This document shows positions 6,423 to 12,825 of a DNA stretch of 64,000 bases, piece after piece; within the stretch, counting starts at the first letter, position 1, and each line of letters begins with the position of its first letter. Position numbers and translations under genes: made by a program. The DNA is taken from assembly GCF_024700885.2 (NCBI RefSeq), contig NZ_CP117016.1; one strand, 5' to 3'. Source of the DNA: Escherichia coli. GTDB lineage: Bacteria > Pseudomonadota > Gammaproteobacteria > Enterobacterales > Enterobacteriaceae. Under the pieces are notes generated by a model. That model saw only the letters and a program-made list of their open reading frames with translations, had not been told where the DNA came from and searched no databases.

Positions 6423-7648
6423 GATAACGGTTCATGTATCCCCTGAGCTGACAGTGTACCGGTTATATTAAGCGTAACCGACAGGTTCTCCTTCATACCA
6501 TATTAAATTTTTCCAGGTATTGCCGCTGCCTTATTTCGTCCCATACAGGAAAACTCGTCTGGGTTTCTGACAAATACGTGAAACTCACAGCCCCTCAATA
6601 TCAACCACACGCTGTAAGCCGGTAATACCTGAAAATCAGCCTATTACCGCCCACGCCTCCGGCACTATTCCCTTTTGATTTCGAATTCTTTGTTGTCGCT
6701 ATACCGTGTAACATCACCGATACCACACACCGGCACAGATAACACCGGACTTATCGTAGCGCTGCTTCAATATTCAGGTGACATATTTCCAGACGGAAGC
6801 CGGCACGCGATCGTAAAATTTGCGGTCAGTTCTGCCAGCCGGTTGTCAACGGCAGAGTTAAAGGCTTCCAGCTCCGCAAGGGTAAGTTTATAACGCGTGT
6901 GGGAATTCACTTTTCCCGCGTCTCCTGACGTATTACGGGCTGCCACTTACCTGGTGTCCCGCAATACAGCCTTAGTGTTCCGTTATCGGGGATCCGGACG
7001 CACCGCAACAACCGGGGAAGTATTTCTGGTTAGAGCTGTGTCAAGAGGGATTTCTCAGCCCCTCACTCACCGGCTCAGTTTCAGGGCAGGAGCATTAATA
7101 CGCTCAGTTCATGTCTTATACAGGAATGGGCATAGGGGGAGCTGGCGTGTCACTGCTGATTTTACGCATCAGCGTTCATGTATTTGCACTCTGATACAGA
7201 ATGCTTCACAGCGCTCTGTTACCGGAGAGATTTACTCTCTTAGGTTATTCTGGCAAATCCTTTACGTTACTCTCTGATAACTTCTTATATTTATAATACC
7301 AATCAGACAGCCTTATCCCACCAGTGATACCTGTCCCGGCCCACAAGGCACGGGCTGCCCCACCGTAACTGCCCCGTAAATAACTCTGCAATTATCAGAA
7401 CGCCAGTTTTCCCCTCTTCCTCACGAAAATCATCCCTTCTTTATCGCGCGCGCGTGCGGAAGCATCGTTTCGTAACAACCACCCGGCATACCGGTACGGC
7501 TCAGCCACCGTAACCTCCCCGTTTATCTCCTGGCGGTCACATTCCCGATTATTTTTTACGTTTCTCCCCGGTTGTTATGCCGGTGAAGGTGGTGCGTTGT
7601 TTTCATGACCACACCGGCTGGTTTAACAACATCCGGAGGAACATTCTC

Positions 7649-7855
7649 ATGATCACCCCAGTTTCACTGATGGATGACCAGATGGTCGACATGGCATTTA
7701 TCACTCAACTGACCGGCCTGACCGATAAGTGGTTTTACAAACTCATCAAGGATGGTGACTTTCCTGCGCCCATCAAAATGGGCCGCAGCTCCCGATGGCT
7801 GAAAAGCGAAGTGGAAGCCTGGCTGCAGGCGCGTATTGCACAGTCCCGTCCGTAA
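7649..7855 (+). CDS. alpA: AlpA-family prophage transcriptional regulator
   Basis: LTGLTDKWFYKLIKDGDFPAPIKMGRSSRWLKSEVEAWL is the AlpA HTH signature; GGAGGA Shine-Dalgarno before ATG 7649. Confidence 0.8.
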   Translation: MITPVSLMDDQMVDMAFITQLTGLTDKWFYKLIKDGDFPAPIKMGRSSRWLKSEVEAWLQARIAQSRP

Positions 7856-7935
7856 TTCTTAACCGTTCATCTGCAACAGACGCAGTCTCCGGCCTGCCGG
7901 CGGCGTTCTGCTGCCTGTTATCCCCCGTGAGGAAT

Positions 7936-8544
7936 ATGAAAATGAAACCACAGTATCAGACCCGTTACGAGCTGCTCCACGAAAGCTACCAGAAATGGCT
8001 GACCGGCTTCACCCGGCACGCCGTATCCTGGGGCGTGTGTCATCCGAATATCTACTACTTCCATAATCTGACGCCCGGGTGGGTGTCATTCAATGGTGAA
8101 AAACCGGAGATTGCCATCGTACCCCAGAGTCTGCACCGGCTGATTTATGGTCCGGACAAACGGACCACGCCGCCCCTGGATGATGATCTGATAGTGAATT
8201 TATGCACCAGTGAACATCTGCTGGTTCATCATCCGATGCTGGAAGGCATTCTCCTGTCTGAATGTGAACGTCTGAGGCAGCGTTCGCTGGCAAATAAACT
8301 GATCAGCCTCTTCCGTCAGTTTGGTGGCACGGAGTTGCGCCTCAAACTGGTCTGGCTTTGCTGGCTTGATTTAATGACCGGAAACTGCCTTGACGACTGG
8401 ACGGAGAATCTGAAACGGAAATCAGAAAAAGAGCTGGAGGAATGGATCATCAACCGTCAGAAGCAGAGCGCAGCACTGACGGATCTGATGGATCAGTACG
8501 TGCTCCTGGCATACCGCACAACGGTTGACGATAAGCGCACCTGA
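7936..8544 (+). CDS. hypothetical protein (202 aa) downstream of alpA
   Basis: ORF with GTGAGGAA Shine-Dalgarno before ATG 7936 (start MKMKPQYQ). Confidence 0.5.
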   Translation: MKMKPQYQTRYELLHESYQKWLTGFTRHAVSWGVCHPNIYYFHNLTPGWVSFNGEKPEIAIVPQSLHRLIYGPDKRTTPPLDDDLIVNLCTSEHLLVHHPMLEGILLSECERLRQRSLANKLISLFRQFGGTELRLKLVWLCWLDLMTGNCLDDWTENLKRKSEKELEEWIINRQKQSAALTDLMDQYVLLAYRTTVDDKRT

Positions 8545-8766
8545 TGCCAGTTGTTTCAGGGAAGCTGGTATCCGGGCAGGGTGCCAGGGCTGACTGAACG
8601 GCCTGTCTGTCTGCCGTTTCGCTCTCCGTGCGTTCTGTCACACGCTGCACCTGAACGCCGGACTGCGGGCACGCAGACAGGAAAGTCGCAGGCTGGAACT
8701 TCTGACCGGCGGGTATCAGTTATATGCCTGTTGATTCATCACCACCACGCAGCTCCTGAGCTTTAG

Positions 8767-8806
8767 TTCATCACCGATATTCATACATCTGAATATCGGT
8801 GATGAA
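8767..8806. repeat. perfect 17-bp inverted repeat (TTCATCACCGATATTCA / 6-nt spacer / TGAATATCGGTGATGAA)
   Basis: Read directly; lies between convergent genes ending at 8544 and 8866. Confidence 0.6.
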
Positions 8807-8865
8807 ATCCCCATAATAATCAATCATCTAAGTCTGAAGCATAATGGAGAAAAACTGCTCACCGG

Positions 8866-10350
8866 TTACTTCGCTCTCAGCTTATTGTAGTGATAACCCG
8901 AGGTAAAAATACCAGAGACATCAGACAACTTTAAACTGGCTATCTGGGGAAGCAGAACATACATGGTTTTTCCTTCCGGCACGACAGAAAGCCTGAACTG
9001 AGATTCAAGAATGTTCAGCAATGCGTTCAGTTTTTTCCTGTTTCTGAACCGACCCGGGCCACACTGGAGAATATAATTTTTCCTGACACGGGGTGGGCAT
9101 TCTCCGCGGCACTCCTCAATGAGCCAGTCGAACAGCTCCTCGGCGTCCTTCTGCTGCAGTTCAGATTCATCAGGTAACGCAAATAATTTTTTATATTCAT
9201 CTGTGTACCACGAACTTATTACGACAGCAGACGTCATGATATCGGCAGAGATTTTCCCTTCACCATAGTTGAAATACTGAAATAACGCTGCAATTCTTGC
9301 AATGTTTTCTGTTTTTTTTGAAACATGTCCCCGAAACGGGCTTAAGGGTCCGGAAGGGGATAAATCCTGCTCCAGAACATTATAGTGCTCAATAAATATT
9401 TTTTGCGCTTCAGGCGAAAAATGCAGACAATACCGTTCATCCTCACTGGATTTTTCAATACTGCCTCTGGCCAGTTCCATTAATCGTTCATGAAATGCCG
9501 TTAATGATCCTCCCGGAATCACAGCTCCGTTAATAAAGCGTTTCCCCTGCGTGGTTGCAGGTTTACTGATAAGACAACGGGCAAGAAAACCACTGTCCCT
9601 GGCAACAGAACCTTTTCGCTCCATATATCGGTCAAAAAGACCGGGTTGCACCATGAGGGATAACGTCATTCTGGCATTTTCAATCATCTGTTCGGGTTCA
9701 TTCTTTCTGTCCACAGACAATACAGAGCCATCCCACATTTTGTTAATAAAAGGCAACTCAGACAGGGTATATCCATCAAATATAATACCGGCTTCATCTG
9801 ACATAATACCCACTGAACGCCATTTACCATAAAGCTGATTCTTAATTGCCGCAGTCGTGGCATCATTAAAAATGAATTTATACCTCACAGGTTCTTCCGC
9901 ACTGTTTTTCTGAAGTACTTCCAGTTGTCTGAGGGTTTCTGACTCATCCGCGCCTTTGCGGAGTTCTTTATTCAGTTTTGACAACAATGCTTTTTTCTGA
10001 GCCTTTAAAAGCTCTTCCTTGTTTTTCCAGACAGCCAGTTCACTTTTGTATCTGGAATATAACTGCATCTCCTGCTGGTACAGGGGCTTCATTAATAATT
10101 TGTCCACTGCGGTTTTTCGTTCTCCGGACTCGGCAAGCGTCAGGAAAAAAAGAGAGACCGGCCCCCGCAGTGTATTCAGTCTGCAGACATCAATCAGATT
10201 CTGGCAGACAAGTGAAACAGCGCCCAGGGCAGACGCTGCCACAAGCCCAAGGGGAGCCTGCGTAATTTGCTGAGCTTCAATAACGGCATCACGAATGAGT
10301 GGAGGCAGCGAACTCAGGGGAAACTCATCACAAGGCTGACCGAATGACAT
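8866..10350 (-). CDS. DUF3987-like (YfjI-like, primase C-terminal-like) island protein
   Basis: Approx. 490 aa with an SDEAG segment, next to alpA as in CP4-type islands; start at MSFGQP with GTGAGG upstream; ORF track extends to 10419. Confidence 0.45.
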   Translation of the reverse strand: MSFGQPCDEFPLSSLPPLIRDAVIEAQQITQAPLGLVAASALGAVSLVCQNLIDVCRLNTLRGPVSLFFLTLAESGERKTAVDKLLMKPLYQQEMQLYSRYKSELAVWKNKEELLKAQKKALLSKLNKELRKGADESETLRQLEVLQKNSAEEPVRYKFIFNDATTAAIKNQLYGKWRSVGIMSDEAGIIFDGYTLSELPFINKMWDGSVLSVDRKNEPEQMIENARMTLSLMVQPGLFDRYMERKGSVARDSGFLARCLISKPATTQGKRFINGAVIPGGSLTAFHERLMELARGSIEKSSEDERYCLHFSPEAQKIFIEHYNVLEQDLSPSGPLSPFRGHVSKKTENIARIAALFQYFNYGEGKISADIMTSAVVISSWYTDEYKKLFALPDESELQQKDAEELFDWLIEECRGECPPRVRKNYILQCGPGRFRNRKKLNALLNILESQFRLSVVPEGKTMYVLLPQIASLKLSDVSGIFTSGYHYNKLRAK

Positions 10351-11580
10351 AGTAACCTCACTACACACAGATATAAAAGCACTGCAATTCTGGCTATTAA
10401 TAGCAAAAATAGCAGTCAAATCAATATGAGGTAAAAATTTTTGTTGATTTAATGGTTAAATAATAACCACAGTGTGTTTTGCTGCTGAAGAAAGACAAAA
10501 TGAATCTGTGTGTCCCCTCCTTCCCTTCAGAGCACATCCACTATTCAAATTTTACACAACCACGTACGAACAAAAAGCATCATCCCGGGTATTGCAGATA
10601 CCGGTTTCCTGCCGGGATGAATCATAAACAGAACACCGGGAATAACGCCTTCAGGAATCCCCCCCCTCCTGAAGAAGAATAAAATAAAGAAGACTACATT
10701 TCCTGCACTGTATGCTGAGTACAATATTCTATGGACAGGATGACATATTTATAAATAACAAAAACCATTTAATACTGATACATCAATAAAATACTTCCTC
10801 CCTGCTGACGCAGATAAAATGCACCATTTTTTCTTCAAATACTTCTGTATAATCGCCAGCCAATGATGAGAATGGATTAAAATAACACTTCTTCGACAAA
10901 CACAAAAACAGCCTTCATTTTACATCATCATCCAGTTTCAGTTAACCCCGGACGAGCAACAGCGTTTCAGTACAGGAATTAAAAGCCAGCTTTTGCTCAG
11001 TAAAAACACACTCAACTAATAATATCTCAGCAGATATTATCCTGACCAGGACACCTCACATTACTGAATTCTCTTCCGACAGTATCACTGCACAAATAAA
11101 AAAGAACGGGATAAATATTCAGACCGGAAGAATGGTGTCACAAAAGCATTTAATCATTACGCATGACCAGGAAGGGAAACACTTAACCACATGGTATCAA
11201 CAGATATCATTACGTGTGCACTCTTATAAAAAACACACAGAAGAAGTAAGATAATTATAAATGTAAATTTAATATCTCCCACTGACATCTCCCCCACAAT
11301 ACACTGAAAAATACTCACAGCAGTAAACACAGACACACCTGATAATCATGCAGCCGATAAATATTTTCCCCTTTACGGAGAAATCAGCCTGCTGTTTAAC
11401 AATAACGGCGTATTTTCATGGAAGGAGATCACCCAGTAACGGATAAGTCCTGATCTCCTTCATGTTAATACGCAACAATCCCATCGATTAAAAACAATTT
11501 CAGACAGATATTATCTCCGTGAATCCCCCGCCACCTTTCCGGTGCGCGGGATTTTGTCTTTTTTCACCGGGAATACATGT

Positions 11581-12453: not shown

Positions 12454-12572
12454 ACACTCTGCCAGGGGAAATGCCTGATTATATTGCATTAACAAACTGA
12501 AAACATGACACAAACCCCTCATACTCCTCCTGTTTCTCTTGCGTGACCGCCTTGTCGTTAATAGAATAAAAC

Positions 12573-12608
12573 GATCGATAAAACAGGTATCGATCGCTAC
12601 TATCGATC
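12573..12608 (+). promoter_or_regulatory. agn43 phase-variation switch: three GATC Dam sites within the OxyR-binding region
   Basis: GATC at 12573, 12592 and 12605 in AACGATCGATAAAACAGGTATCGATCGCTACTATCGATCGTTTATAG, about 220 bp upstream of the flu ATG. Confidence 0.7.
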
Positions 12609-12825
12609 GTTTATAGTGGTTAATGGCCTGCGAAAAGGCAGCTGAATCTCTTCATCATGCAGAACGGAATTGCACACAACGGACTGATACTTCTCTGGCG
12701 GATGAGAGAGGGGAAGCATTTATGTCCGGGAAAAACCACTTTATCTGACCATGCTGTTTTGTACCTGCCGGTATCCACATTTGTGGGTACCGGCTTTTTT
12801 ATTCACCCTCTGTAAGGAAAAGCTG

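Follow-up and report, generated by a model that had tools for sequence, protein, structure and literature searches.

In an accessory island of Escherichia coli, two genes that point toward each other are separated by a long perfect inverted repeat. This locus raises the question of what such an element does: whether it ends transcription, is read as DNA by a protein, or is a by-product of sequence turnover. The stretch of DNA analyzed here, called the window throughout, is 64,000 nucleotides long.

Inverted repeat between convergent island genes

Positions 7500-10500 of the window were 100% identical to E. coli strain MLI114, and the RefSeq annotation of the MLI114 record was used for gene calls. 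The genes and the parts of the repeat are listed below.

7649-7855, + strand: AlpA-family helix-turn-helix gene, excisionase/regulator-like (RefSeq; Pfam Phage_AlpA, PHROG)
7942-8544, + strand: hyp, a 200-aa hypothetical protein, the second gene, after the AlpA-like gene (RefSeq)
8767-8783: left arm of the inverted repeat, TTCATCACCGATATTCA
8784-8789: spacer (loop) of 6 nt, TACATC on the + strand and GATGTA on the - strand
8790-8806: right arm of the inverted repeat, TGAATATCGGTGATGAA
8866-10350, - strand: yfjI, a YfjI-family/DUF3987 gene (mobile-element helicase family; RefSeq, Pfam, PHROG)

The AlpA-like gene is the upstream partner of hyp, and this unit converges on the hairpin from the left. 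A first-pass annotation, made from the sequence, had described the repeat as lying between convergent island genes, and the RefSeq calls (hyp on the + strand, yfjI on the - strand) bear this out. The repeat begins 222 nt past the hyp stop and finishes 59 nt from the yfjI stop. YfjI matched Pfam DUF3987 (E = 1e-95) and PHROG 2373, “DNA helicase”; a DUF3987 protein has been demonstrated to be a 5'-3' helicase of a mobile element (PMC11724360). No match to hyp was found in Pfam, PHROG, NCBIfam or PDB. A 71-aa ORF (8551-8766) that ends just 5' of the hairpin was rejected as spurious: it has a TTG start, its frame differs from that of the hyp remnant described below, and it had no family match in Pfam or PHROG.

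The module lies in a pathogenicity-island-type region of the E. coli chromosome, together with a GTPase gene, Ag43/Cah, IrmA, antirestriction and CbtA/YeeU genes, IS66 and IS21 elements, a kps capsule cluster and a type VI secretion cluster. IS insertions found in this region in other strains did not strike the hairpin. Upstream of yfjI, a non-coding gap of ~1.2 kb (10351-11579) separates its start from that of the divergent GTPase gene; the gap is 85-95% conserved between island alleles and yielded no RNA family. A 12-bp inverted repeat with three GATC sites, AAACGATCGATA...TATCGATCGCTACTATCGATCGTTT, occupies 12569-12612, upstream of the Ag43/Cah gene; it resembles the known Dam/OxyR phase-variation switch of agn43/flu. 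The Rfam IS102 RNA (RF00124) was placed at 12571-12807.

The two arms are complementary at 17 of 17 positions (100%) around the spacer TACATC, exactly the perfect 17-bp repeat with a 6-nt spacer that had been claimed. Within the 64-kb window the 17-mer was present at these two places only, even when 3 mismatches were allowed, and the hairpin was the longest perfect inverted repeat of the window with loops of 3-20 nt allowed. In 100 first-order Markov randomizations of the window, the longest inverted repeat measured 8-13 bp and never reached 14 bp, in agreement with the first-pass judgment that a 17/17 palindrome is unlikely by chance. The second-longest perfect inverted repeat of the window (41151-41186) has arms of 13 bp, TATGACACAACAT and ATGTTGTGTCATA, a 10-nt AT-rich spacer and no U-tract.

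Folded alone as RNA, the hairpin had predicted energies of -25.4 (+ strand) and -26.2 kcal/mol (- strand), and 101-nt contexts compared with shuffles gave folding z-scores of -6.1 (+) and -3.75 (-). G-C pairs account for 7 of the 17 pairs of the stem. The sequences 3' of the hairpin, ATCCCCATAATA on the + strand and CTAAAGCTCAGG on the - strand, contain a U-tract on neither strand, as had been noted before.

Occurrence in E. coli and mobile elements

The hairpin was present in 1178-1180 of 5426 complete E. coli genomes; a 50-nt query centered on it matched 1180 of them, always on a chromosome. The median of two places per genome obtained with this query reflects a palindrome that matches both strands; with an asymmetric query of 85 nt, the median was one place per genome and the maximum three. 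The entire 322-bp spacer between hyp and yfjI was at least 99% identical in ~1155 genomes. Matches in plasmid records were confined to three records of 1.4-4.9 Mb, all at the same locus, and these are apparently chromosomal sequences filed as plasmids. The hairpin had no match in the phage collection, and a scan of viral contigs revealed one identical locus.

The hairpin is thus single-copy per island and is located at the yfjI 3' flank only. The first-pass annotation had named a lack of genome-wide recurrence as part of what would speak against its proposal, and our check indeed found no recurrence. These data bear on one class of known elements, the REPs, which are reported to stabilize mRNAs and to be partial Rho-dependent terminators, also between convergent genes (bioRxiv 10.64898/2026.03.23.713779). 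Like REP/BIME elements, the window hairpin is an extragenic palindrome in a 3' UTR. However, REPs occur in hundreds of copies per genome and share a common consensus, whereas the window hairpin has one copy per island and an unrelated sequence. With one copy per island, no phage match and no other plasmid context, a dispersed repeat of the REP/BIME or MITE-like kind was rejected.

Rfam searches gave nothing credible at the hairpin, either in evalue mode over 7400-10600 or in gathering mode over the whole window. Elsewhere in the window, two Rfam families scored above the gathering threshold: a JUMPstart element (RF01707; 46243-46281, - strand) in the kps capsule part, and the C0719 sRNA (RF00117; 61056-61277, + strand). 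The searchable literature contained nothing relevant on the hairpin sequence or the yfjI locus.

Allelic versions of the hairpin

Paralogous islands keep a constant gene order and diverge sharply from the start of hyp to approximately codon 467 of yfjI. We surveyed this variation by a metagenome scan anchored in conserved yfjI sequence, which yielded ~95 loci. Their yfjI 3' flanks fell into four types, A-D, whose arms and spacers are given below in the yfjI sense.

Type A (this window): left arm TTCATCACCGATATTCA, spacer gatgta, right arm TGAATATCGGTGATGAA
Type B (L003): left arm CCGTCACCC, spacer ccgcttctgcatga, right arm GGGTGACGG
Type C (L002): left arm CGTCACCACCA, spacer gcttttgta, right arm TGATGGTGACG
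Type D (L004): left arm CCGTCATCCTC, spacer tgcttctgcat, right arm GAGGGTGACGG

Types B-D have, at the same position, a shorter related hairpin with the core TCACC/GGTGA. Their arms are 9-12 bp with mismatches and their spacers 9-14 nt, as against the perfect 17 bp and 6 nt of type A; all four allelic hairpins folded with -16.5 to -26.3 kcal/mol on both strands. The basal 9-10 nt of the left arm in the window, TTCATCACCG, are homologous to a hairpin arm of the other island alleles, and the motif TCATACA, across the arm/loop junction, is common to the window hairpin and allele C. Compared with allele C, the type A arm has an extra GATAT before the shared TCATACA, and its right arm copies the left one exactly. 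On these alignments, the perfect 17-bp form looks like a lengthened derivative of an ancestral stem of 9-13 bp. It was possibly perfected by intramolecular template switching, since the extra GATAT and the exact arm copy would be the expected product of that process.

The spacer around the hairpin also has a composite history. Types B and C have a convergent spacer of ~115-120 bp in total, in which ~40 nt separate the hairpin from one stop and ~45-50 nt from the second. The longer spacer of the window contains the following element.

8638-8742, + strand: non-coding remnant of a B/C-type hyp 3' end, 73-77% identical to the 3' end of the hyp coding sequence in types C and B (L002/L003)

The old stop codon of this remnant (TGA, 8733-8735) is located 31 nt before the hairpin, a distance that preserves the ancestral short convergent spacer. 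Because 8638-8742 is the remnant of an alternative hyp allele, the 322-bp spacer is a recombination mosaic. Allele D combines an A-like AlpA/hyp region with a B-like hairpin, and the last ~30 codons of yfjI diverge along with the hairpin type.

Several other features of this segment were observed. The stretch from the start of hyp to approximately codon 467 of yfjI corresponds to 7914-8941 in the window and is a cassette that has been swapped and is highly divergent: at the protein level, the hyp alleles A/D share only ~36% identity with B/C, as against ~90% for YfjI outside this segment. The C-terminal ~30 residues of YfjI are allele-specific and reach beyond the point at which the K-12 protein ends. 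The spacer of the window also contains an imperfect second inverted repeat (8602-8615/8668-8681; CCTGTCTGTCTGCC/GGCACGCAGACAGG), with arms of 14 nt that match at 86% and lie 52 nt apart, and allele D has a related repeat, GGCAGACAG/CTGTCTGCC (L004, 2991-3018).

Conservation of base pairing

The flanks of the hairpin, taken on one side up to the yfjI stop and on the other up to the next conserved anchor, were only 45-50% identical between type A and types B-D, a level close to that of a global alignment of unrelated sequence. Between the same types, 13-15 of 20 nucleotides of the basal stem were identical. The differences within the stem were mostly double changes, with both sides changed at 6 of 13 stem pairs. 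For example, at L10/R8 type A has G-C, types B and D have C-G, and type C has A-T; at L4/R14 the A-T of type A contrasts with G-C in the other three; and at L2/R16 type A has T-A, types B and D have C-G, and type C has T.G. At least four stem positions have different Watson-Crick pairs across alleles. Within type A, one pair forms a series: the window and ~1159 genomes have C-G, ETEC H10407 and ~9 others C.A, UMNF18 T-A, and a single metagenome contig (L057) A.A.

Covariation was scored on an alignment of the stems of nine variants, made by hand with loops removed and with the structure in mind. Standard pairs made up 91.5% of stem cells, compared with 26-62% when the partner was slid by 1-3 columns, and the covariation score was reached by no shuffle, in a sample of four deep lineages and a few variants. 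Polymorphism within type A was no lower in the hairpin than in its flanks. The hairpin is real and non-random, and its pairing is conserved across alleles; judged from these substitutions, structure rather than sequence appears to be conserved.

Complementary changes of this kind do not by themselves require selection, since template switching within a quasi-palindrome can yield them. The hairpin might accordingly be read as a function-less quasi-palindrome in a fast-diverging, recombining spacer, kept and lengthened by intramolecular template switching. Several observations agree with this: the repeat falls in the part of the module that varies most, hyp through the YfjI tail; the arms of the 17-bp form match perfectly, and the other alleles have mismatched arms of 9-12 bp around spacers of 9-14 nt; variants with A.A (L057) or C.A (H10407 and about nine other genomes) mismatches circulate; allele A shows no excess conservation of the hairpin; and distant yfjI and hyp loci are devoid of it. 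However, the stem persists even though the allele flanks are near random-level identity, at least four positions have exchanged one Watson-Crick pair for another, one mismatch intermediate has been re-paired in another strain, and all alleles keep a strong hairpin centered between the two stops. We therefore regard an element without function as unlikely, if still deserving of some weight.

The polarity of the variants was of little help with regard to the acting molecule. Non-Watson-Crick variants were split evenly, with about three that would be G.U on one strand and about three G.U on the other, and the asymmetry between G.U and A.C was discarded as an uninformative pointer to the folding strand. 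RNA and DNA, as well as the two strands, are not separable in this way because the G.U and A.C variants are strand-symmetric; a hairpin formed at the DNA level fits the split equally well.

Relationship to transcription termination

The first-pass annotation had proposed either an atypical bidirectional terminator or a protein site. For a genuine Rho-independent terminator acting in both directions despite the absent U-tract, the attraction is a very stable hairpin with a short loop between convergent genes, and a stem of 17 bp with a 6-nt loop and -25 to -26 kcal/mol is what a terminator description would call a stable stem-loop with a short loop. Hairpin-driven release by E. coli RNA polymerase, however, requires a U-tract. 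In all four alleles, the 12 nt that follow the stem 3' are free of a U-run on both strands, and no A-run or A-tract precedes the stem. The sole T-rich run of types B-D, ACTTTTCCT, precedes the stem on the + strand and is misplaced for transcription in either direction. A promoter/terminator consensus scan found no site at the hairpin, and only 7 of 17 pairs are G-C. The hairpin of a typical bidirectional intrinsic terminator is placed between an A-tract and a U-tract; the window hairpin has neither. With four alleles lacking both the 3' U-tract and the 5' A-tract, a canonical bidirectional intrinsic terminator is excluded by the sequence, and an unorthodox Rho-independent terminator that would work without these tracts is extremely unlikely.

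A different class of elements offers a closer parallel. Stem-loops without a U-tract have been described at the 3' ends of E. coli Rho-dependent transcripts; they have no upstream A-tract and are followed by a mild excess of C over G (PMC6061677). Such stem-loops shield the RNA from PNPase and RNase II after diffuse downstream termination (Dar & Sorek 2018, PMC6061677). The window hairpin is likewise a stable stem-loop located past a stop codon, with neither U-tract nor A-tract, and on the + strand it is followed by the stretch given below.

8807-8886, + strand (hyp-sense): C-over-G stretch, C/G 1.8, compatible with a Rho-utilization region

In the 80 nt past the stem, C/G was 1.3-1.8 in the hyp sense and 0.6-0.9 in the yfjI sense across the four alleles, values that are also shaped by the yfjI coding sequence. 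The published description of a stable stem-loop without a U-tract downstream of a gene (PMC6061677) thus applies to this hairpin. Two differences were observed: the - strand has no excess of C over G, and the 17-bp stem is longer than usual. The accessory island is absent from K-12, so the hairpin is not in the published maps and is known here from sequence. A second parallel is provided by hairpins between convergent genes that position polymerase collisions without terminating transcription alone (bioRxiv 10.1101/2022.10.23.513370). Like these, the window element is one palindromic hairpin, centered in a short convergent spacer and foldable in both transcripts.

These likenesses suggest that the repeat is a 3'-UTR stem-loop without a U-tract that fixes or protects the 3' ends of both convergent transcripts, an interpretation to which we give about an even chance of being correct. 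The element would be a stable RNA stem-loop in the shared 3' untranslated region of the alpA-like and hyp transcript on the + strand and the yfjI transcript on the - strand. By itself it most likely does not release RNA polymerase. Transcription that continues beyond either stop would enter untranslated, antisense territory, where Rho, head-on polymerase collision or both would end it past the stops. The hairpin might then cause pausing and hold back 3'-to-5' exonucleases, leaving a precise and protected 3' end. From the hairpin, its position, its single copy and its pairing, all of which are observed, we infer action at the RNA level, an ending by Rho or collision, and protection of the 3' end by the stem.

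The location of the hairpin between the two stop codons and its strength in all alleles favor this 3'-end function, and the absence of a C-over-G region past the hairpin on the yfjI-sense strand counts against it. A factor-dependent 3'-end stem-loop is the best supported interpretation because the double substitutions preserve pairing. Of the two possibilities in the first-pass annotation, the terminator is therefore retained in altered form, as such a factor-dependent stem-loop with its pairing kept; its canonical form and the protein site were not upheld.

Possible function as a DNA site

The palindrome could also act as DNA, for example as an origin or helicase-loading site for YfjI, as an operator of the AlpA-like or hyp protein, or as a recombinase core site. 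Satellites and islands often put their origin beside the replication gene, with iterons or palindromes to which the helicase or initiator of the element binds. The repeat shares with such origins its symmetry and its place right after the gene of a mobile-element helicase; in addition, its type tracks the variable C-terminal tail of YfjI, its G.U/A.C variants are strand-symmetric, and its 17-6-17 geometry resembles recombinase core sites. There is also a further copy of part of the arm nearby.

8735-8743, + strand: a third copy of TTCATCACC in direct orientation, 32 bp before the left arm and considered incidental

The third copy might suggest a set of binding sites. It does not co-vary with the arms, however: in H10407 it reads TTCGTCACC, and the arms do not change with it. 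This copy derives partly from the old hyp 3' end. The window contained three copies of the 9-mer, all at the hairpin locus, and the best other match to the 12-mer (6711-6722, one mismatch) was within chance (~0.3 expected in the window, an estimate).

Other aspects of the locus also argue against a DNA site. No further half-sites, clusters or iterons were found in the window or the island, and unlike satellite and island origins the hairpin has neither an iteron array nor a notable AT-rich unwinding region. A half-site of 17 bp is far longer than typical protein half-sites. The spacer of 6 nt, compared with 9-14 nt in the other alleles, is unlike the fixed geometry of a dimer or a recombinase, and no recombinase gene is annotated within ~8 kb. 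The link between hairpin type and the YfjI tail is explained by their distance, since they are <100 bp apart, and allele D breaks the co-variation of the hairpin type with the AlpA-like and hyp genes. Besides, such a hairpin is missing from K-12 and 20 other Enterobacterales loci that carry YfjI homologues at 52% identity; it is not conserved with the helicase family. Taken with the points in its favor, a role as DNA is distinctly unlikely.

Two special cases were rejected. A tyrosine-recombinase core site was discarded on the variable spacer, the lack of a recombinase within ~8 kb and the fact that the hairpin is not at a segment boundary; a recombination-boundary or attC-like site was discarded similarly, with the hairpin inside the variable segment and not at its edge. 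A further candidate is a hairpin or cruciform loading site, serving a cryptic replicon of the island as its origin or for single-strand initiation. The adjacent DUF3987 helicase YfjI would recognize it through its variable C-terminal tail, and hairpin and tail would co-evolve as a specificity pair; this is very unlikely. We also noted what we take to be a resemblance of the hairpin to the P4 alpha iteron TGTTCACC. This likeness was not used as evidence, as DUF3987 has been reported as a different helicase class (PMC11724360). If the hairpin were a DNA site for the DUF3987 helicase, the finding would matter more.

Distant relatives of the locus

Of two scans of genome contigs, the first, with the YfjI alignment, found nothing, and the second recovered only YfjI homologues of 34-60% identity, most of them ~50%; no equivalent hairpin was found at these loci. 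CP4-57 yfjI of K-12 (52% identical) has no hairpin downstream. Instead, K-12 yfjI and 20 related Enterobacterales loci are followed by an AT-rich intergenic region that leads to a gene in the same direction. In a group of these loci (L103-L115), the first ~150 nt past the stop of the yfjI homologue contained a conserved AT-rich block, …ACTAATTACAGAGTAACTTTTAATCAGTCATCGCAGGCTGTGGCTA…GTGTCGGATAGTTATTATATTG…, before the next gene on the same strand; the block, which follows K-12-type yfjI in many genera, could be a promoter or another regulatory region.

One locus, from Kosakonia pseudosacchari (L117), had a 17-bp perfect hairpin with a 6-nt loop ~41-80 nt past the stop of its yfjI homologue, followed by TTTCATTTTTT. 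This hairpin, with its T-tract, is a textbook intrinsic terminator of the same geometry, in contrast to the window hairpin with its missing U-tract.

The partner genes on the other side of the hairpin are also widespread. The AlpA-like gene and a gene for a hypothetical protein of ~200 aa form a conserved pair across Enterobacterales, including Yersinia, Klebsiella, Hafnia and Pantoea (L129-L136), where the pairs adjoin GTPase and G2P/YfjJ-like genes and are located directly upstream of Dnd, BREX or type I restriction-modification systems. Neither yfjI nor the TCACC hairpin was present at the AlpA-hyp loci of these four genera.

Implications

The role of the hairpin is most probably an ordinary one. 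If it does define 3' ends, it would be one more unannotated 3'-UTR stem-loop of the kind described for Rho-dependent transcripts of E. coli. The locus also advises caution against annotating such palindromes as intrinsic terminators or operators by sequence alone. The island that carries it is present in about a fifth of sequenced E. coli, and under the same 3'-end interpretation the hairpin marks where the alpA-hyp and yfjI transcripts probably end, which is of modest practical value. It would then also be a clean natural example of compensatory evolution in a hairpin that lacks a U-tract and lies between convergent genes.
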